Shown: one piece after another, positions 2,226-47,270 of the stretch
Layout of the letters: each line of letters opens with the position of its first letter
Numbering within the stretch: the first letter of the stretch is position 1
Program-made: the position numbers and the translations under genes
Notes under the pieces: generated by a model
Database searches by the model: none
What the model was told of the DNA's origin: nothing
Seen by the model: the letters and a program-made list of their open reading frames with translations, nothing else
Assembly (NCBI GenBank): GCA_964016885.1
Contig: OZ024749.1
Coordinates: 7,688,001 to 7,752,000, forward strand
DNA length: 64,000 nt
Origin: Eledone cirrhosa
Lineage: Eukaryota
Direction: 5' to 3'

Positions 2226-2456
2226 GTATATATGTCTATCCATATCTATATCTATCTAACTATATAGGTATTTATATTTTTGTGAGTGTTTGTGTTACGT
2301 TTACCTCTGCATATATATATACAGGTTTGTCCCTGGCAAAACTATATATATATATATATATATATTTTGATACAAATAAATTAACTATCCCTAACATAGT
2401 TTTGTTCCAATTCTATTCTTTAGGAGCGACTGTATCGATAGACTGAAGACATCACT

Positions 2457-4436
2457 TTATATAACTGACATATGTAAGTACCTTAAACCTCTTCTGTATA
2501 TAACTGACATATGTAAGTACCTTAAACCTCTTTATATAACTGACATATGTAAGTACCTTAAACCTCTTTATATAACTGACATATGTAAGTACCTTAAACC
2601 TCTTTATATAACTGACATATGTATGTACCTTAAACCTCTTTATATATCTGACATATGTAAGTACCTTAAACCTCTTTATATAACTGACATATGTATGTAC
2701 CTTAAATCTCTTTATATATCTGACATATGTACCTTAAACATCTTCTATATATAGCTGACATATCTAAGTACATTAAACATCTTTATATAACTGACATATG
2801 TACCTTAAACCTCTTCTGTATATAACTGACATAAGTACCTTAAACCTCTTCTTTATATAACTGATATACGTATGTACCTTAAACCTCTTCTTTATATAAC
2901 TGACATATGTACCTTAAACCTCTTCTTTATATAACTGACATATGTACCTTAAATCTCTTTATATAACTGTCATATGTACCTTAAACCTCTTCTTTATATA
3001 ACTGACATATGTACCTTAAACCTCTTCTTTATATAACTGTCATATGTACCTTAAACCTCTTCTTTATATAACTGACATATGTAAGTACCTTAAACCTCTT
3101 CTTTATATAACTGACATATGTACCTTAAACCTCTTCTTTATATAACTGTCATATGTACCTTAAACCTCTTCTTTATATAACTGACATATGTAAGTACCTT
3201 AAACCTCTTCTTTATATAACTGACATATGTACCTTAAACCTCTTCTTTATATAACTGTCATATGTACCTTAAACCTCTTCTTTATATAACTGTCATATGT
3301 ACCTTAAACCTCTTCTTTATATAACTGTCATATGTACCTTAAACCTCTTCTTTATATAACTGACATATGTAAGTACCTTAAACCTCTTCTTTATATAACT
3401 GACATATGTACCTTAAAACTCTTCTTTATATAACTGACATATGTACCTTAAACCTCTTCTTTATATAACTGTCATATGTACCTTAAACCTCTTCTTTATA
3501 TAACTGACATATGTAAGTACCTTAAACCTCTTCTTTATATAACTGACATATGTATGTACCTTAAACCTCTTTATATAACTGACATATGTACCTTATACCT
3601 CTTTATATAACTGACATATGTATGTACCTTTAACCTCTTTATATAACTGACATATGTACCTTAAAACTCTTCTTTATATAACTGACATATGTACCTTAAA
3701 ACTCTTGTTTATATAACTGACATATGTACCTTAAAACTCTTCTTTATATAACTGACATATGTACCTTAAACCTCTTTATATAACTGACATATGTATGTAC
3801 CTTTAACCTCTTTATATAACTGACATATGTACCTTAAACATCTTCTTTATATAACTGACATATGTACCTTATACCTCTTTATATAACTGACATATGTACC
3901 TTATACCTCTTTATATAACTGACATATGTACCTTATACCTCTTTATATAACTGACATATGTATGTACCTTTAACCTCTTTATATAACTGACATATGTACC
4001 TTAAACCTCTTCTTTATATAACTGACATTTGTACCTTTAACCTCTTTATATAACTGACATATGTACCTTAAACCTCTTCTTTATATAACTGACATATGTA
4101 CCTTATACCTCTTTATATAACTGACATATGTACCTTAAACCTCTTCTTTATATAACTGATATATGTACCTTAAACCTCTTCTTTATATAACTGACATATG
4201 TACCTTAAAACTCTTCTTTATATAACTGACATATGTAACTTAAACCTCTTCTTTATATAACTGACATATGTACCTTAAACCTCTTCTTTATATAACTGAC
4301 ATATGTACCTTAAACCTCTTCTTTATATAACTGACATATGTACCTTAAACCTCTTCTTTATATAACTGACATATGTACCTTAAACCTCTTCTTTATATAA
4401 CTGACATATGTACCTTAAACCTCTTCTTTATATAAC
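2457..4436. repeat. minisatellite, ~35-bp unit (32-39-bp variants)
   Basis: TATATAACTGACATATGT(AAGT)ACCTTAAACCTC(TTC)TT repeated over ~2 kb. Confidence 0.97.
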
Positions 4437-5411
4437 AATATATTTTCCAATAGAAAGGTTGACTGGCTAAACACCATAACTAGTCTCAATCATCAATGTT
4501 TGTGTGTGTTACGAGTCAGCTAGTAAACACTTTGGATATTTCCCCCACATTTGGCTGTATTTGATAGTCTTTATTATGTGTGTGTTCTTCTGTGTGTATC
4601 TGCGTGTGTTGTGTTGTGTGTGTTTCTGTGTATGTGTGTGTGTCGGTGTGTGTAATCTGTATTCACCGCTCACTGTTTAAGGGACAGTCCGACAGGATGG
4701 AGAAGACATTGTCACGGAGGACTGCAAGGGAGACCCACATGAAGAGCCTCTCCACTTAAACTAGGCAAAGGAGCAACAATTCTTAAGGGTGAGGAGAAAG
4801 TCGATTATATCGACCAGAGTAATATGACTTAGCACATCACTTTAAACTCGGGTCTATTTGGAGGTTCATGGCTAGAGTATTTCTTTCTCTTCCTTCGTTT
4901 GGACATATATGCGATCCCTATATGAAACACGGCTGGATAAAACAGTTCTCTGTGCAAGTATGTGAGCTGTTTAAGGGTTTGTGGCATTGTAAAGGTGTGA
5001 GGGTGTGAGTGTATGTTATCTGTATTTGATCACGCACTGTTCAAGGACGGGTCTAGCTAGTTATCCTGGTTGACAGAATGTAGAGTCTATTAACCTGAAG
5101 GGAGATATTCCAGCGGGTAGTTATCTCCGCTCCGATAGAAGTGAGTAGGTAGGGATGTTCCCTGGGAGGACAAGAAAGCCGGAAGACTCCACAATCCAAA
5201 GATCAAACACAAATATGTCTGAGAGTAAATGAGTAGACTGTCAACAGAGATATAGACATACACATGGATTTTTTTTCAATGTATTAAATCACGTATATAT
5301 AAATATACTAATAAAAGCAGTTAAACAGAAAGAGAAGAGAAATAGACTTGAGAAGAATGGAATATGAAATAAGAAAATATAACAGAAAACGGAAAAGTAA
5401 GAGAAAGACAT

Positions 5412-6320
5412 GGGCTGTAGTGTAACAGAATATAAAGGAAGGGATGAGAAGGGCTGTAGTGTGACAGAATATAAAGGAAGGGATGAGAAGGGCTGTAGTG
5501 TGACAGAATATGAAGGGAGGGAAAGACAAGGGCTGTAGTGTGACAGAATATAAAGGGAAGGGCTGTAGTGTGACAGAATATAAAGGGAAGGGATGAGAAG
5601 GGCTGTAGTGTGACAGAATATAAAGGAAGGGATGAGAAGGGCTGTAGTGTGACAGAATATAAAGGAAGGGATGAGAAGGGATGTAGTGTGACAGAATATA
5701 AAGGAAGGGATGAGAAGGGCTATAGTGTGACAGAATATAAAGGAAGAGTAAGACAAGGGCTGTAGTGTGACAGAATATAAAGGAAGGGATGAGAAGGGCT
5801 GTAGTGTGACAGAATATAAAGGAAGGGATGAGAAGGGCTGTAGTGTGACAGAATATAAAGGAAGGGATGAGAAGGGCTATAGTGTGACAGAATATAAAGG
5901 AAGAGTAAGACAAGGGCTGTAGTGTGACAGAATATAAAGGAAGGGATGAGAAGGGCTGTAGTGTGACAGAATATAAAGGAAGGGATGAGAAGGGCTGTAG
6001 TGTGACAGAATATAAAGGAAGGGAAAAGGAAGGGCTGTAGTGTGACAGAATATAAAGGGAGGGATGGGAAGGGCTGTAGTGTGACAGAATATAAAGTGAG
6101 GGAAAGACAAGGGCTGTAGTGTGACAGAATATAAAGGGAAGGGCTGTAGTGTGACAGAATATAAAGGGAGGGAAAGGGAAGGGGTGTAGTCTGACAGAAT
6201 ATAACGGGAAGTGAAAAGGAAGGGCTGTGGTGTAACAGAATATAAAGGGAGGGAAAGGGAAGGGCTGTAGTGTGACAGAATTTAAAGTGAGTGAAAAGGA
6301 AGGGCTGTAGTGTGACAGAA
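5412..6320. repeat. purine-rich minisatellite, ~39-bp unit
   Basis: GGGCTGTAGTGTGACAGAATATAAAGGAAGGGATGAGAA tandem. Confidence 0.97.
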
Positions 6321-7654: not shown

Positions 7655-7695
<41 letters not shown>

Positions 7696-7734
7696 GATGT
7701 TAACAAATGGAAACTATATTTATAAAACCCTATC

Positions 7735-7799
7735 TATTTTATTATACATATTTCAAGGATTCTATGTTAAATTATGGTATGCTTTCATCAGACAAAATA
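7735..7799 (-). ncRNA. type I hammerhead ribozyme (family A, mirror arm)
   Basis: Reverse complement of the 7954-8018 motif; TCATCAG at 7785-7791. Confidence 0.75.
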
Positions 7800-7953
7800 C
7801 AATATATACCAGTTTTATAAATAAATATTGACATACCCTTAAAAATGCAACCGTTACTTTTGGAAGACATCAGGGATAGTGATGTCTTCCAAAAGTACCT
7901 GTTGCATTTTGAAAGGGTATGTCAATATTTATTTATAAAACTGGTATATATTG

Positions 7954-8018
7954 TATTTTGTCTGATGAAAGCATACCATAATTTAACGTAGTATCCTTGA
8001 AATATGTATAATAAAATA
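7954..8018 (+). ncRNA. type I hammerhead ribozyme (family A)
   Basis: TATTTTGT-CTGATGA(7962)-AAGCATAC..GTATCCTT-GAAA(7999)-TATGTA-TA-ATAAAATA; stems I and II pair. Confidence 0.8.
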
Positions 8019-8147
8019 GATATGGTTTTATAAATATAGTTTCCATTTGTTAATATCGTATATTTACTCCAAATACTTGTCGAGTGCTTTATATATTAGT
8101 TATAAAAATATTTGCTTGTTGTATCCCAACAATTTAAATAGAACTTT

Positions 8148-8236
<89 letters not shown>

Positions 8237-8279
8237 CTGTATATATATATATAGTCGTGTATATATAAATATATAAATA

Positions 8280-8311
<32 letters not shown>

Positions 8312-8349
8312 GTTGTGTGTATATATATATGTATATATATATATATAGT

Positions 8350-8390
<41 letters not shown>

Positions 8391-8786
8391 GTGTATATTT
8401 ATATATATATATATGCATCTATCTACACATGCACACACATATACATACATATATATGCGTACGTTTGTCTGTGTTTATGTATGTGTGTTTGTGAGTGTGT
8501 GTACTTGTATGCTAGTGTGTGTATGTATGTATGTGTGTGTCTGTCTGTACGTTTGTGTGTGTATGTGTGTTTGTGAATTTGTGTGCTAGTGTGTGTGTGT
8601 GTGTGTGTTTGTGCGTACACGTGTATGTGTGTCTGTGAGTGTGTGTGCTTATGTGTGTGTATGTCTGTGCCTGTGTAATTTAGTTAACATATGGTACTGC
8701 ATTATTGAGTAGCAGTAAAAAGAAACATTCCTTCTTTATGACAAGTTAGTTGCATTGTTATATGGTATGTTTATTTCCCCGCCTTT

Positions 8787-8858
<72 letters not shown>

Positions 8859-8860
8859 GT

Positions 8861-9212
8861 GCAAAAGTTTTATTTAAAATTGTTGGGATACAACAAGTAA
8901 ATATTTTATAACTGATATAAAGCACTCGACAAGTTTTTGGAGTAGATATACGATATGGAAACAATATTTATAAAACCATATTTATTTCATTATACATATT
9001 TCGGGGATACGAAATTAAAATATGGTATGCCTTCATCAGACAAAATACAATATATAAACAGTTTTATAAATAATTTTGACGTACCCTATTAGAAGCGACC
9101 ATTACTTTTGGAAGCTGTCTGGATAGTCTATCCCCGATAGGGTATCCCCGAAATATGTATAATGAAATAATATGGTTTTATAAATATAGTTTCCATTTAT
9201 TTTATATCGTAT
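8861..9212 (-). mobile_element. family A copy 2: tailed minus arm plus short inverted arm (9143-9212)
   Basis: Homologous to 7879-8150. Minus-strand HHR at 8983-9047 (TCATCAG 9033-9039). The short arm ends at the same ATATCGTATA boundary as in copy 1. Confidence 0.85.
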
Positions 9213-9750: not shown

Positions 9751-9922
9751 AATAGCTTAGAGTTTAGACTCAGAGAGGTCATTTACAATCATTTCAGCTC
9801 TAGTAATCGCTTCTGAGCAGTATAAATTAATATTTGATGAACATTTACATGTTATAGTTGCAATTGACTAATTAGTCAATTGCAACTATAACATGTAAAT
9901 GTTCATCAAATATTAATTTATA
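9751..9922. mobile_element. spacer-less perfect palindrome (51-bp arms, 9821-9922) with one-sided tail
   Basis: Centre GACTAA|TTAGTC at 9871/9872; related to 26258-26501. Confidence 0.8.
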
Positions 9923-18904: not shown

Positions 18905-19625
18905 GTCTTCTTATCGTGTCTACAAGAGACAGTTATAAAGCTTGGCTACATGAGGTTCTGTCACATCTGAACACATTGCTGTCTCTTCTGTCCACAAGAG
19001 ACAGTTACAGAGCTGGCTAGATGTGGTACTGTCACATCTGAACACATTGCTGTCTCTTCTGTCCACATGAGACAGTTACAGAGCTGGCTATATGTGGTAC
19101 TGTCACAGCTGAACACATTGCTGTCTCTTCTGTCCACATGAGACAGTTACAGAGCTGGCTAGATGTGGTACTGTCACAGTTGAACACATTGCTGTCTCTT
19201 CTGTCCACAAGAGACAGTTACAGAGCTGGTTAGATGTGGTTCTGTCACAGCTGAACACATTGCTGTCTCTTCTGTCCACAAGAGACAGTTACAGAGCTGG
19301 CTAAATGTGGTTCTGTCACAGTTGAACACATTGCTGTCCTTGTGTCCACAAGAGACAGTTACAGAGCTTGGCTAGATGTGGTACTGTCACAGCTGAACAC
19401 ATTGCTGTCCTTGTGTCCACAAGAGACAGTTACAGAGCTTGGCTAGATGTGGTACTGTCACAGCTGAACACATTGCTGTCCTTGTGTCCACAAGAGACAG
19501 TTACAGAGCTTGGCTAGATGTGATTCTGTCACATCGGAACACATTGCTGTCTCTTCTGTCCACAAGAGACAGTTACAGAGCTTGGCTAGATGTGGTACTG
19601 TCACAGCTGAACACATTGCTGTCAT
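18905..19625 (-). repeat. 71-72-bp minisatellite (~10 copies) derived from the 3' end of the adjacent LINE
   Basis: ACACATTGCT at 18971, 19042, 19113...; the unit matches the single-copy LINE end at 19850-19900. Confidence 0.9.
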
Positions 19626-20200
19626 TTCTCATTAAACTCTACAAGTCCAATGCTGTGTAGAGGTGTTCCTCTAGGAGCTGCTGCATAGTCTCTGGTTTTA
19701 TTCCACAGTCACACACAATGTCCACATTCTTTAAATATCCTCAGTTTTCAAGAATGACCTTTGCACTTACAGTACAGTAGTTTGTATTACTGGCTATCAG
19801 ACATAGTGTATCTAGGACTATATTATCCAATGTTCACAAGGGTGTCGGCTACAAAGCTTGGCTAGATGTGGTTCCACCACAGCTGAACACATTGCTGTCC
19901 TTTGTCTTTTCTCATTAAACTCTACCAAGTCCAATGCTGTGTAGGGGTGTTCTAGCAGGAGGATATCAGGAGGTGTTGCGTAGTCTGTGTTTGATGCTAC
20001 AGTCACACTCAACTTCCCCATCCTTTAAATATCCCCATTTTGCCAGATTGCTGTTTGCACATCCAACACGAGATCTTAGTCTGTTGATGCATTTCCACAC
20101 TGTATAGTTTGTATCTGCTCCGGAGGGCAGTACCTCGCTCGCATTTATCTCCATTGTTGTTACAGATGGAAGGTTGTTAAGTTTTCTTCCCAGCGAGTGA
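19625..20200 (-). mobile_element. Vingi/Ingi-like LINE C-terminal fragments (two partial copies)
   Basis: LPSGADTNYTVWKCINRLRSRVGCANSNLAKWGYLKDGEVECDC fits the WxxLNRLR..KWG..CDCG zinc-knuckle. The ORF ends QCVQLWWNHI*. Second copy GYLKNVDIVCDCGIKPETMQQLL. Confidence 0.75.
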
Positions 20201-22902: not shown

Positions 22903-23419
22903 TAGATATTTCTTTGTATATAATTTTAATTCTCACCGTCACTTATTCTTGAATACATTTTAAATTGTTAAATTAAACGTTATATATATTCAAAAAGATA
23001 AAATAATAAAAAAGGTATTATTCCTTTATATTTAATTTTTAAATGATTTTCGTTTCCCTAAAAAATCTAATCGATACAACTAAATAATTTTTCCCGATTA
23101 TTTTTTTTTCTCTCTTATAATATTCCTACAGTAAAAATGTTCATCTACTTTAAATTCAGGTTGTTTGTAAATGAATTAATTTTAATAGAAATTGATAATA
23201 CATACATTTCTTTCTTTCTAAATAATTATACAAAGTTTTAAATAACAATGTTGAATTGATAATTTTTAACATAGATAATGATCTCCCTTCTTCTAAAATA
23301 AATAATATATCACATACTATTAAAGCATTCTTAACTATATATTAAAAGATATAAAAACAACCATATTAACTATTAAATACTTTTCTATTCAGAAATTTCA
23401 ATATCTAAATATAAATAAT

Positions 23420-23606
23420 TGTTACTACTTTAGGCACAAGACCAGCAATTACTCAGTGCATTACTGGTACTTTATTTTATCGACCCCGTAAGGATGAAAG
23501 ACAAAGTTAACCTCGGAGGGATTTGAATTCAGATCGTAAAGGGACGTAACTATGCTGGAAAGCATGGCGTCCGACCCTCTACCGATACTGCCAATCCACC
23601 GCCCTT
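23420..23606 (-). mobile_element. full-length SINE S1 inserted in the PLE 3' region with a 16-bp TSD
   Basis: TCTAAATATAAATAAT at 23404-23419 and 23607-23622. Confidence 0.92.
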
Positions 23607-26223: not shown

Positions 26224-26257
26224 ATATATAATATAGATATATATATATATATTTATA

Positions 26258-26501
26258 CTATCAATAATAATGAGTTCGAAACTCAGGCAGTCTTTTACAA
26301 TGAAATAGCTCAAAGAAAGAAGTATTTCTGAGCCCTGTAATACAAGTTAATATAAATTAATATATTTGATAAACACAAATACCAACATATTTATGTTTGT
26401 ATTGTAAATGACCAAGTTAGCTAACTTGGTCATTTACAATACACACATGAATATGTTGGTAGTTGTGTTTATCAAATATATTAATTTATATTAACTTGTA
26501 T
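26258..26501. mobile_element. spacer-less palindrome (81-bp arms, 26340-26501) with one-sided tail
   Basis: Centre GTTAG|CTAAC at 26420/26421; tail GAGTTCGAAACTCAG..TTTACAAT..AGCTC resembles 9760-9800. Confidence 0.8.
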
Positions 26502-26636
26502 ATATATTTATATGTATATATATATATTTATATGTATATATATATATATTTATATGTATATATATATTTATATGTATATATATATATATATAATATATAT
26601 ATATATATAATATGTATATATATATAAAAATATGTA

Positions 26637-29534: not shown

Positions 29535-29830
29535 GGTGGATTGGCAGTATCGGTAGAGGGTCGGACGCCATGCTTTCCAGCATAGTTACGTCCCTTTACA
29601 ATCTGAGTTCAAATCCCACCGAGGTTGACTTTGCCTTTCATCCTTACGGGGTCGATAAAATAAAGTACCAGTAATGCACTGGATAATTGCTGGCCTTGTG
29701 CCTAACGTAGAAACAATTATTATCATTATTATATATAATTGCCTTTCATCCTTACGGGGTCGATAAAATAAAGTACCAGTAATGAACTGAATAATTGCTG
29801 GCCTTGTGCCTAAAGTAGAAACAATTATTA
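29535..29830 (+). mobile_element. SINE S1 with duplicated 3' half
   Basis: One near-complete copy, then a repeat from TTGCCTTTCATCC (~29739). Confidence 0.85.
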
Positions 29831-29929
29831 TTATATATATATATATATATAATATATTCATATATATATAAATTATTTTTAATCTGTAAATTATAATCAA
29901 GGTGGTGTGTTAACTGGCTTACCAATGTA

Positions 29930-30904: not shown

Positions 30905-31610
30905 CAAGACTCTACCATATAAGATTAAGTTTCTACCAAGATTAGATCTACCACCTAAGATTAAGTTTCTACTAAGATTAGATCTAACATCTAAGATTAA
31001 ATTTTTACCAAGATTAAATCTAAAATCTAAGATTAACTGTCTACCAAGATTAAGTTTCTACCGAGATTAAATCTAAGATCTAAGATTAAGTTTCTACCAA
31101 GATTAGATATATCACCTAAGATTAACTTTCTAACAAGATTAAATCTATCATCTAAGATTAAGTTTATACCAAGATTAGATCTACCACCTAAGATTAAGTT
31201 TCTACCAAGATTACATCTAACATCTAAGATTAAGTTTCTACCAAGATTAAATCTAACATCTAAGATTAAGTTTCTATCAAGATTAAATCTAACATCTAAG
31301 ATTAAGTTTTTACCAAGATTATATCTACCACCTAAGATTAACTGTCTACCAAGATTAAGTTTCTACCAAGATTAGATCTACCACCTAAGATTAAGTTTCT
31401 ACCAAGATTAGATCTACCACCTAAGATTAAGTTTCTACCAAAATTAAATCTAACATCTAAGATTAAGTTTCTACCAAAATTAAATCTAACATCTAAGATT
31501 AAGTTTCTACCAAGATTAAATCTAACATCTAAGATTAAGTTTCTACCAAGATTAAATCTAACATCTAAGATTAAGTTTCTACCAAGATTAAATCTTATAC
31601 TCAAGATTAA
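30905..31610. repeat. 36-bp minisatellite built from two AAGATTA-headed subunits (17+19)
   Basis: AAGATTAAGTTTCTACC-AAGATTAAATCTAACATCT tandem. Confidence 0.95.
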
Positions 31611-32046
31611 TCGCTTTAGTCAAGAACATTTCTACCGGTGAAGATCAACTCTACCATCCAATATTAATTATAATTACCGGAGATTAAATGTAATATCTCA
31701 GAATAATTTTTGACCCAGGACTAAATGTGCTAACCAAGTATTGAATACATGAGATGAATATAAGAATGATTAACATTTGCGTCAAACACGTGAGCCAATT
31801 TGACTGGTATGCTTCTGTCTGAAGGATCTACAAATTCGCCACAACCATCATCTCACACCCAAGGAAATAATCGATCATTTCTAGTGAATATTACTTGAAA
31901 TATTTCATGATTTGATCAGGACAGAGAATATGGGTTCCTGGTTTATGAAGACGAAACTATCGTTATTTGGGCAGAACTGATTGTAAACGCATATTCATAT
32001 ATATGTGTATGTATATATATAAATAAGTAAATATATCTATATTTAT

Positions 32047-34030: not shown

Positions 34031-34134
34031 TATATATATATTCAATTGAAGAAAGTTGGTTTATTGAAAATCTGCCGACTTTTTCTTAACAGTTGTAAAG
34101 CAACCACGGTTTTTATTCATCCGGAGATTTATTA

Positions 34135-34530
34135 TAATAATTGTTTCTACTTTTGGCCAGCAAGGCCAGTAATTTACCCACTGCATTACTGCTGCTTTAT
34201 TTCATCGAACCAGTAAGGTTGAAAGGCAAAGTTTCGGCAGGATTTGAACTCAGACCGTAAAGGGCCGTAACTATATGACGTTAAGCATGGCGTCTTACCC
34301 TTTACCTATACAGCCAATCTACTGCCCTTGCGTTTTATTACAATAATTGTTTCTACTTTTGGCACAAGGCCAACAATTATCCCAGTGTATTACTGGTTCT
34401 TTATTTTATCGACCCCGTGAGGATGAAAAGCAAAGTTAACCTCGGTGGGATTTGAACTCAGACCGTAAAAGGGGGTAACTCTATGTTACAAAGCATGGCG
34501 CCCTACACTCTACCGGTACTGCCAATCCAT
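34135..34530 (-). mobile_element. two adjacent SINE S1 copies
   Basis: Reverse-complement S1 bodies at ~34135-34330 and ~34340-34530. Confidence 0.85.
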
Positions 34531-40369: not shown

Positions 40370-40373
<4 letters not shown>

Positions 40374-41405
40374 GACGTAAAATAAGAAAATTATAAAAAT
40401 TAACTTACTAAAATTTCACTCCAACTAATTAGTTTCTGAAAGGGAATAAACATGGTTTCCAAATGGAAATCAGAGAGAAGCCGTTTCGTCATCAGGAAGT
40501 CTGTTCTCAGCTAAGTTACCTGTCGATGCGTGGACACAGGGAAATTATACAAAAATAATTCAGTGGATGGAAAAAAGTAAGTGTCGACTAAATTCCAAGA
40601 CATTGAAAAAATCACTGCCTACTTGGTCGGTGGCAAATTCAAAAGAATCAATCACGTGACATCGAGGTTAATCAGTGAGGAGTGGGGTGTTAAAAACGCA
40701 GTAGCTGAGTAAGTTAATTTTTATAATTGTTTAACAATTTTCTTATTTTACGTCTTTCATATAATTGTTCTGCAACCCCTTACATTGAACCACAAAGTTA
40801 CTAATACAAAACCTATATATTTGCTAGCATAGGTATACATCTGTATATATATGTTGGTAGATATACTAATTCTTTATAATTATCTCCAAATTATTTGGTT
40901 GAGCAAAAGTTTGCCAAAACTGCTACTATACTTCATAGTAATAGCTCGGCTACTGTCTTTTTAACACCCCACTCCTCACGGATTAACCTCGATGTCACGT
41001 GATTTGATTCTTTTGAATTTGCTACCGACCAAGTAGGCAGTGATTTTTTTCAATATCTTGGAATTCAGTCCTCGCTTGCTTTTTTCCATCCACTGAATTA
41101 TTTTTGTATAAGTTCCCTGTGTCCAGGCAACTCCTGGTAACTTAGCTGAGAACAGACTTCCTGATGACGAAACGGCTTCTCCATGCATTCCACTTGGAAA
41201 CCACGTTTATTCCCTTTCAGAAATTAATTAGTTGGAGTGAAATTTTAGTAAGTTAATTTTTATAATTTTCTTATCTTGCGTCTTTCCTATAATTGTTCTG
41301 CATCCCCTTGCATTGAACCACAAAGTTACTAAGACAAGACCTATATATTTGCTAGCATAGGTATGCATCTGTATATATATGTTGGTAGATATCCTAATTC
41401 TTTAC
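40370..41405. mobile_element. family E composite: tail-less minus arm, partial plus copy, full plus copy with tail
   Basis: 40370-40710 is inverted to ~40945-41290; 40710-40877 duplicates 41247-41403; CTGATGA at 41161. Confidence 0.85.
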
Positions 41406-45210: not shown

Positions 45211-45985
45211 TAAGTATCTACACGTACATACATATATATATACAGACGTACAGTAGTATGTATATGTATATAGATACATGCACACATATATATATGTACG
45301 TATGGATTTACGGAACATTTATTATAATGCTCGGTGTGTTTGTAAGCAAACATCCCGTATTAAGCCGTAGTGTCCAGCACCCATCGTTGCTCGTTGATGA
45401 ACACTGACAAATGAACGCTGTACTAGTTTCAAGCTTATTAGCTATCGTCAGCAACTTATACCTGTACCTCTGTATACATATATGTATGTACGTGTACATA
45501 CTTGTATTTAAGTAACAGCCGTACTAAGAGTGGGAAATGAAATTTCGTTTAATTTTTTCCGTTTATCGTTTTCGGTGCACCCGGCCGAGTAACCCACTCG
45601 ATATGCAAATTGGGCTACTCAGCCGTTAATATGCATAAGGTAAGTATATACGTTCAACAATCTGGCAGGAAGGTATACGTTGCTGACGATAGCTAATAAG
45701 CTTGAAACTAGTACAGCGTTCCTTTGTCAGTGTTGAACAAACGAGCAACGATGGTTGCTGGATTCTACGGCTTATTAAAAGATGTTTGTTTACAAACACA
45801 CCGAGCATTATAATAAATGTTCGGTGAATCCATACGTACATATATATATGTGTGCATGTATGTATATATATATACATACTACTGTACGTCTGTATACATA
45901 TATGTAAGTACGTATACATACTTATATTTAAGTAACAGCCGTACTCAGAGTGGGAAATGAAATTTCGTTTCATTTTTTCCGTTTA
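45211..45985 (+). mobile_element. family K: tail-less inverted arm (45211-45460) plus ~1.2 plus-strand units
   Basis: Minus HHR TCGTCAG at 45445; plus HHR CTGACGA at 45683. Confidence 0.9.
45677..45719 (+). ncRNA. minimal type I HHR (family K)
   Basis: ACGTTG-CTGACGA-TAGCTAATAAGCTT-GAAA-CTAG-TA-CAGCGT. Confidence 0.9.
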
Positions 45986-46677
45986 TATATATATATTTAT
46001 ATATATATATATATTTATATATATATAAATATATATATATGTATATATGCACACTGTCCCGAAAAATGTATACGCACTTCAACAACATGTGGACATTTTT
46101 TATGTATATCTCTACATATCATCTCTCAATCTTTCTCTCCATTCTCTCTTACTTCTCTCCAGCCACCTTCTTACCCCTTTCCTTTTCTTTTTCGCTCTCT
46201 GTCTCTGTCTGCCTCTCTTCTCCCTTCTCTCACCACCTCCCTCTCTCTCCCCCTCTCTCTCCCTTCCCTCTCCCTGGCCCTCTCTCTCACCCTCTCAGTG
46301 CTGTCACCATAACATACAATACCCGACATCAGGTGTTAGTGTGTTCCCAGTCCAGTGGAATTAGTATTCCGAGTTAACAAAAGCTGCTCTAGATCTTACC
46401 GAATCTCTATTACATACAGCATGGTATTACTTAGTACTGCGCTAGATAATTACAATGAGAGGATTAAGCCCTTGAGCATTGAGTATCTTATTTTCTATAA
46501 TAATTCCATTCAGAAAAGGTGACTGTGTTATAAGAGCCGCCACCCATCTAGCCAACACGAGACAGTCGATTGGACCGGACCAATCAGAGATTTGGTTAAC
46601 TAACATTTTGACCTGATTCTATCATCTGATCAACTCGGAACTAAATCTCGGATCAACGATGATAAAAAGTAAAGAAA

Positions 46678-47270
46678 AAACACTTAACATCTATAAAATC
46701 AGAGTGAGGTAAAATACTTTTAAACACAAAAAAACACTTAACATCTATAAAATCAGAGTGAGGTAAAATACTTTTAAACACAAATAAACACTTAACATCT
46801 ATAAAATCAGAGTGAGGTAAAATACTTTTAAACACAAAAAAAACACTTAACATCTATAAAATCAGAGTGAGGTAAAATACTTTTAAACACAAATAAACAC
46901 TTAACATCTATAAAATCAGAGTGAGGTAAAATACTTTTAAACACAAATAAACACTTAACATCTATAAAATCAGAGTGACGTAAAATACTTTTAAACACAA
47001 ATAAACACTTAACATCTATAAAATCAGAGTGACGTAAAATACTTTTAAACACAAATAAACACTTAACATCTATAAAATCAGAGTGAGGTAAAATACTTTT
47101 AAACACAAAAAAACACTTAACATCTATAAAATCAGAGTGAGGTAAAATACTTTTAAACACAAAAAAACACTTAACATCTATAAAATCAGAGTGAGGTAAA
47201 ATACTTTTAAACACAAAAAAACACTTAACATCTATAAAATCAGAGTGAGGTAAAATACTTTATAACATCT
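46678..47270. repeat. 54-bp minisatellite (~11 copies)
   Basis: AAACACTTAACATCTATAAAATCAGAGTGAGGTAAAATACTTTTAAACACAAA(T/A). Confidence 0.97.

Follow-up and report, generated by a model that had tools for sequence, protein, structure and literature searches.

How does an insertion come to consist of two arms joined head to head, one of which stops ∼90 nt earlier than the other? The question is raised by two insertions of one family, family A, in a 64,000-nucleotide stretch (the window) of microsatellite-rich animal DNA from a 3.0 Gb assembly. Both copies (7695-8150 and 8861-9209) lie between (TA)n tracts and both are built in this way, as a first-pass annotation of the window had described them: a short arm, and a long arm reaching ∼90 bp further. 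We refer to the early stop, or tail-less end, as S1, to the late stop, or tailed end, as S2 and to the sequence from S1 to S2 as the tail. The features of the two copies are as follows.

7662..7694: (TA)n tract on the left flank of copy 1, read from the sequence
7695..7881, minus strand: tail-less arm of copy 1, with the element 3′ end at S1 (7695), extending 187 nt upstream of S1
7880..8150, plus strand: tailed arm of copy 1, with the element 3′ end at S2 (8150) and the 5′ end 178 nt upstream of S1
7962..8008, plus strand: type I hammerhead-like core, recognized by its motif (CUGAUGA...GAAA at 7962-8002) and mirrored on the minus strand from 7791
8059..8063, plus strand: S1 patch of five alternating T/A bases, the junction of tail-less arms with (TA)n
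8059..8150, plus strand: tail, S1 to S2, 92 nt in copy 1 against 90 nt in the family reference
8066..8085, plus strand: small hairpin, first copy (ACTC...GAGT), 7 nt beyond S1
8151..8228: (TA)n tract on the right flank of copy 1
8861..9114, minus strand: tailed arm of copy 2, with S2 at 8861 and S1 at 8951
9115..9140: inner junction of copy 2, a short palindromic filler
9141..9209, plus strand: tail-less arm of copy 2, 68 nt, with its S1 end at 9209

The tail-less arm of copy 1 has ACATCG in place of ATATCG at its S1 end, and the plus arm continues 92 nt beyond S1. A second copy of the small hairpin (GCTC...GAGC) is found 3′ of S2 in full-length elements and is missing from copy 1. From the layout of its core, the hammerhead-like motif of copy 1 would presumably be cleaved after 8008. 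Copy 2 belongs to a more divergent subfamily, at ∼86% to the reference of copy 1. Elsewhere the window contains a SINE-like family of ∼190 nt (244-1105, with a tandem repeat at 261-734, 23412-23606, 29535-29831 and 34128-34529) and minisatellite arrays at 2451-4436, 5394-6320, 18916-19629 (period ∼71 nt), 30911-31726 and 46675-47267 (period 54 nt).

The same layout recurs in other families of the window, of which the following are representative.

40370..41404: family E insertion, minus arm ending at its S1 (40370), plus arm at its S2 (∼41404)
40495 (minus strand) and 41161 (plus strand): minimal hammerhead cores of family E
45211..45986: family K insertion, minus arm ending at S1, plus arm at S2
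45451 (minus strand) and 45683 (plus strand): hammerhead cores of family K
9751..9918: small palindrome with a one-sided tail and a GCTC...GAGC hairpin after its S1
26253..26502: small palindrome with a one-sided tail and a GCTC...GAGC hairpin after its S1

The fixed stops reported earlier for these families are found at 40370 and ∼52587 (family E) and at ∼28715 and 45211 (family K), and the suggestion that one-sided tails recur agrees with our count: one arm passes the stop of the other in 17 of the 19 two-armed islands checked, the remaining two (34534 and 55736) being uninformative for read-through. Families E and K are made of tandem hammerhead units of ∼530 and ∼430 nt, in which no ORF was seen, and follow the same end rule.

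In target-primed reverse transcription the 3′ ends of an element mark the points where cDNA synthesis starts. In families A, E and K the hammerhead cores are on the outward-reading strand, as expected if both outer ends are element 3′ ends, which is what had been proposed. For family A the polarity is fixed independently, because the RT ORF lies on the same strand as the hammerhead, which makes the two outer ends of its insertions element 3′ ends. The core motif is conserved in many copies; an Rfam search gave no hammerhead match and the fold of the monomer was not better than that of shuffled sequences (z = +1.27), and we therefore speak of a putative ribozyme, identified by its motif. In the copies examined, 5′ ends did not cluster at the predicted hammerhead cleavage point.

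The parent element was reached by walking upstream from genomic copies, which led to an RT, encoded on the strand of the hammerhead and carrying a GIY-YIG nuclease at its C terminus. A full ORF of 743 aa is present in three copies (L102, L104 and L108); its translation contains YRDD and VVY...YVG, which we take to be RT and GIY-YIG motifs. It also contains SDKTNN, with DKT in place of DKG, an RWR variant of RWK, a linker (CNCRNKSNC) that fits CxCX5C, and CDLC and CRH, which fit the late CxxC and CxH; there is only one Cys between VVY and YVG and hence no CCHH in the endonuclease. A protein search gave 208 homologues at E ≤ 1e-20; among the matches listed, many carry PF26215 and the closest named homologue is from an argonaut. 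Searching the genome with an RT fragment gave 24,436 first-look candidates, 150 of which were scored. Pfam scans of four element fragments and of 14 window ORFs returned no family, and no element ORF was found within the 64-kb window. The insertions combine a partial tandem of pLTRs, an adjacent inverted 5′-truncated copy and a one-sided tail, as do insertions of endonuclease-bearing Penelope-like elements (PLEs). According to the parts of Craig et al. (2021; PMC8557442) covered here, Hydra-clade PLEs have a single ORF with a C-terminal GIY-YIG and target (TA)n. Judged by the motifs described there, the parent of family A is a Penelope-like retroelement with Hydra-clade motifs: it shares DKT, the CxCX5C linker, the absence of CCHH and, flanking the late E and N, CxxC and CxH, and it has a hammerhead-like core motif in the pLTR, where a canonical hammerhead is described for the clade. 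It differs in having RWR rather than RWK and in its unit, which at ∼3.9 kb (3,938 bp between the modules at C1:270.99 Mb) misses the 'generally <3 kb' that the same source (PMC8557442) gives as a soft feature; the unit is this long because of its long low-complexity 3′ UTR. What is new here is a Hydra-like PLE family; the architecture itself is real and already known.

Some observations on related copies stand apart from the argument. Family A is also present in two other organisms (B and C), where S2 likewise forms the junction with TA (at L278:744). At L062:1500-3029 a family A tail leads straight into another ORF, ≥418 aa long, which has no Pfam match and in our reading resembles the start of another Penelope-type protein. 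Two inversions are internal to the ORF: in L145 a pLTR-less fragment of the ORF lies inverted at the 5′ end, and in L134 the inversion is nested.

From 120 loci, chosen with body or RT queries, we collected 175 distinct arm ends (filtered at ≥84% identity and 45 nt); these are top matches and are thus biased to young copies. Sixteen ends read through into the ORF, leaving 159 terminal ends, of which 79 fall within −2 to +5 of S1 (60 exactly) and 70 within 86 to 95 (54 exactly at +90). Thus 149 of the 159 lie at two sites 90 nt apart, which is the two-peaked and not the random distribution that the first-pass annotation anticipated; five of the others join TA elsewhere and five join no TA, so that 154 of the 159 join a TA tract. 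Genome-wide, exact patterns count 4,649 S1 ends and 6,091 S2 ends, with none for the reversed controls. It had been supposed that the tail ends at the RNA's own 3′ end. In full-length copies, however, S2 is an internal TA patch as well, ∼45 nt before the ORF, and the tail runs on into the beginning of the ORF. The idea that tailed arms derive solely from the 5′ pLTR was also rejected, as tailed arms also cover 3′ UTR and ORF sequence.

The 5-nt TA patch is TATAT after S1 and ATATA after S2; five or more bases shared with (TA)n are found at 4% of random cuts. Among 17 sites of the window families placed by hand (one further site could not be located and is outside this number), at least four bases are common with (TA)n in ten, against a null of 9%, and at least three in 13. 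An equal 5-nt TA run at +32 is used by none of the 159 ends, and since such other patches go unused, annealing alone does not choose the site. The earlier proposal that one priming event anneals to an internal TA-rich patch of the RNA is thus half right: the ends do lie at TA patches, but both sites are internal and TA richness is insufficient by itself. At L030 (near 1300), L021 (near 1770) and L222 (near 1490) element ends are stuttered: between TA runs the last 2-7 bases recur, which could reflect re-priming or later slippage.

What accompanies the TA patches is a repeat. The 45-mers downstream of S1 and S2 form a degenerate direct repeat (score 36; the next best in the element is 24, and 0 of 2000 shuffles reach it) that holds a 4-bp stem, ACTC/GAGT after S1 becoming GCTC/GAGC after S2. 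A like stem occurs after both sites in family E and after S1 at 9821, 26340 and 55014; overall it is present at seven of the 17 sites against a background of 2-4%, with none in family K, for a motif defined after the sites were known. The predicted stability of the hairpins is low (−3 to −8.5 kcal/mol).

The two sites are not used independently within an insertion. Among 60 RT-selected loci (with L112 and L128 corrected by hand), 35 have both ends at canonical sites, and 34 of these pair S1 with S2, one pairing S1 with S1 (p = 1e-9); three have one end at a nearby TA site, five could not be scored and 17 have no inverted arm. Either arm can be the long one: the inverted arm is tailed in 18 of the 34 mixed long copies and tail-less in 16, so the equation of the tailed arm with the long arm does not hold throughout. 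The same picture came from the first 72.8 Mb of C1, where a census took in every exact end (68 S1 and 100 S2). Every one of the 24 head-to-head neighbours within 1.5 kb is mixed, where 48% would be expected (p = 2.5e-8), as are 33 of the 35 within 7 kb, one of the two exceptions being two separate mixed insertions; ten of 15 singletons have no inverted arm. In family E (30 loci) all 12 pairs are S1 with S2, with a further copy stopping 5 nt before S2 and another having a non-TA end, and in family K (30 loci) all six pairs are. The true exceptions are L140 (S1 with S1) and L279 and L067 (S2 with S2). Two apparent exceptions were rejected: L280 consists of two separate mixed insertions, and L024 sits in a larger palindromic duplication. 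The latter spans 2.5 kb (L024:564-3078), is centred on a family A insertion and includes its flanks.

The two arms of an insertion also resemble each other in sequence and in extent. Arm-to-arm identity has a median of 0.988 (36 copies), whereas comparisons with other copies have medians of 85-96%; the partner arm is the best or tied match in 24 of the 36, and variants of the template are common to both arms. The inner 5′ junctions vary, as had been noted, but not uniformly: of the 54 census arms, 23 have their 5′ end 155-195 nt upstream of S1, a position that we read as the probable 5′ end of the RNA. In 27 census pairs (leaving out L257, L270, L271 and L279) the 5′ ends of the two arms correlate (ρ = 0.72); relative to −195, both arms pass in five pairs and both stop short in 22, with no mixed pair (permutation p = 1e-5). 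The arms are frequently not nested. The S1 arm runs >15 nt further 5′ in 19 of the 27 pairs and the S2 arm in three; a tail-only arm stands beside an S1 arm with no overlap in L036, L037, L274 and L275; and the inverted arm is tailed, with a main arm that has no tail, in L106, L122, L124, L130, L142, L151, L152 and L157. A copy made by folding back would need a later one-sided deletion to give such non-nested arms. Gene conversion could account for part of the arm identity, and later deletion at palindrome centres for part of the asymmetry. Two signals were considered and dropped: a cluster of 5′ ends at −67, which is a query-selection effect, and a recurrent difference between 5′ and 3′ pLTRs (3/19), in which no pattern emerged.

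Concerning the target, some copies lie inside TA-bearing minisatellite arrays (L257 and L105), which suggests that the TA tracts pre-exist insertion. Interrupted TA repeats are widespread in the genome and, with copies found in pre-existing TA arrays, an origin of the (TA)n by RT slippage is not supported. Reads of four runs at L278 and its left flank, which is part repeat, contain no flank-to-flank joint, and any target-site duplication would be hidden inside the (TA)n. Different PLE-like families pile up end to end in shared (TA)n tracts (for example L032, L054, L110, L124, L142 and L264), together with a family that is LINE-like and ends in (TGA)n.

We consider it probable that the one-tailed head-to-head layout arises when a (TA)n target is cut and its two strands prime RT on the same RNA, one at S1 and the other at S2. 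The underlying idea of two priming events on opposite strands was already put forward in the first-pass annotation, and it is well supported by the pairing, the arm identity, the correlated 5′ ends and the non-nested arms. In such a scheme the endonuclease would cut both strands within the (TA)n and a protein dimer would hold the two hairpins, setting one 3′-OH on each TA patch, where 4-5 base pairs would help and not select. The pairing at the patch may even be dispensable, by analogy with an anole element that starts at a site reported to be non-homologous to the cut DNA (PMC11167929, in the part covered). Both enzymes would copy towards the 5′ end of the RNA, with the enzyme that started at S1 in front, and the two cDNA ends would then be joined head to head. 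On this view, short palindromes (7695-8150 is one) would be products of run-off that end close to where the RNA begins, ∼190 nt upstream of S1, and ORF-bearing copies would use the same pair of sites on a template continuing upstream. The same-site copies L140, L279 and L067 speak against the scheme, as do the copies that lack an inverted arm (17 of the 60 long copies and ten of the 15 census singletons). A stricter form, in which two-ended priming is obligatory, is possible, and we advance it only tentatively: an RT dimer would sit on the duplicated TA-patch-plus-hairpin module of one RNA, each copy of the module being used once and both target strands being extended simultaneously; the tail would be the spacer between the docking sites, and a homologous jump, or an RNA circle running from hammerhead to hammerhead, would be the source of copies that exceed one unit. 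In favour of this, 11 of the 17 full-unit copies that could be measured extend >250 nt upstream of S1, beyond the apparent RNA start; the 5′ and 3′ pLTRs are 98.9% identical (19 copies), and among 65 complete modules just one encloses, together with a second module, a whole unit. As template for copies that exceed one unit, a circle, a homologous jump and rare tandem masters are each compatible with these data. A whole unit flanked on both sides by complete S1-S2 modules was found in a single copy, L252/L253 (G000:C1:270,991,985-270,996,927), whose 3′ end is broken ∼110 nt beyond S2 by sequence resembling another PLE.

An inverted arm could also be made from a single priming event at S2, if the cDNA folded back or primed itself and the endonuclease then resolved the DNA intermediate at S1, a TA site. 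This predicts the one-of-each pairing, identical arms and equal 5′ ends, would suit the short palindromes at many junctions and follows proposals that the tail stems from endonuclease resolution and the inverted arm from self-priming (passages of PMC8557442 and PMC3846280). The tailed arm must then contain the tail-less one, yet the tail-less arm reaches >40 nt further 5′ in 11 of 27 census pairs, and in 18 of 34 long mixed copies it is the ORF-bearing arm that ends at S1 and the inverted arm that is tailed. Large one-sided deletions would be required as a rescue, and in vitro both boundaries of a tail are RT start sites, as far as the covered part of PMC11167929 describes; we regard this route as unlikely.

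Priming from both strands might instead use two separate RNAs from the same source locus, one per subunit. Overlapping arms would then form without one enzyme displacing the cDNA of the other, identity between arms would follow if both RNAs came from one locus, and the rare same-site pairs (L140, L279 and L067) would be permitted. Two RNAs give no reason, however, for the one-of-each pairing, for near-equal arm ends away from the hotspot (−27/−27, −31/−13 and −427/−438) or for S2 arms that stop just downstream of S1, and we judge this improbable. That the arms are independent single insertions into one (TA)n tract, or later inverted duplications, might be thought of in a genome where elements pile up in shared TA tracts and where L024 lies, with its flanks, inside a palindromic duplication. 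The arms, though, join directly at their 5′ ends with no TA tract between them, are ∼99% identical across subfamilies that differ by ∼10%, and form mixed S1 and S2 pairs rather than same-site ones; this explanation is contradicted for most copies and is hardly credible as a general one. Priming of a single RNA from both target strands is therefore the reading that we carry into the comparison with known systems.

In the twin priming of L1 (Ostertag and Kazazian, 2001) both target strands are said to prime on one RNA, giving a 5′ inversion; the first primer reportedly uses the poly(A) tail and the second variable internal sites, and the arms barely overlap. The family A sites are, by contrast, both fixed and both internal, there is no poly(A) and the arms usually overlap. 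Family A works like twin priming, but not in its L1 form.

Among PLEs, Pen2a_Av shows the same head-to-head inverted 5′-truncated copy, the tail at one end and palindromic junctions (passages of PMC3846280; PMC8557442 Fig. 2). The tail is described in those passages as optional or often one-ended and is ascribed to endonuclease resolution or antisense self-priming (PMC3846280, PMC8557442); the pairing counts, the same-RNA evidence and the duplicated hairpin are absent from them. The family A tail, at 90 nt, is longer than the 30-40 bp given for PLE insertions in the covered part of PMC8557442, which names the origin of PLE inverted repeats and one-sided tails as an open question. Families E and K, with their tandem hammerhead units, are like non-LTR retrozymes, the subject of PMC7229834 and of a preprint (bioRxiv 10.64898/2026.07.22.740005), the main text of which has no occurrence of 'tail' or 'priming'; the passages covered of an octopus repeat paper do not treat the pairing rule or twin priming. 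The inverted arm and the one-sided tail are already published, as are a pair of RT start sites and the targeting of (TA)n. The pairing rule, the same-RNA evidence, twin priming in a PLE and the duplicated hairpin were not found in the literature searched, to which supplements and older subscription papers, outside its scope, may add.

The closest biochemical parallel is Poseidon of Anolis carolinensis, PAc (PMC11167929, in the text covered), in which two internal RT starts bound the tail, both strands are cut and extended and a dimer is predicted. Sequence 3′ of the RT starts is needed there, no difference between strands in the start site is reported and pairing within one insertion is not addressed in that text (PMC11167929). 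The PAc starts lie in an AC-rich stem-loop reported to be non-homologous to the cut DNA, whereas those of family A are TA patches that match (TA)n (PMC11167929, same portion). Penelope-like elements are the closest retroelement relatives of telomerase, and a layout that was known but unexplained now has a testable account, in which the thousands of small palindromes in this genome would be run-off products of one mechanism. The counts translate into predictions for the existing in vitro system, namely that each insertion should show one start of each kind, both made from one RNA, that the starts should be set by the duplicated hairpin and that short target pairing should be seen in the (TA)n-targeting clade.
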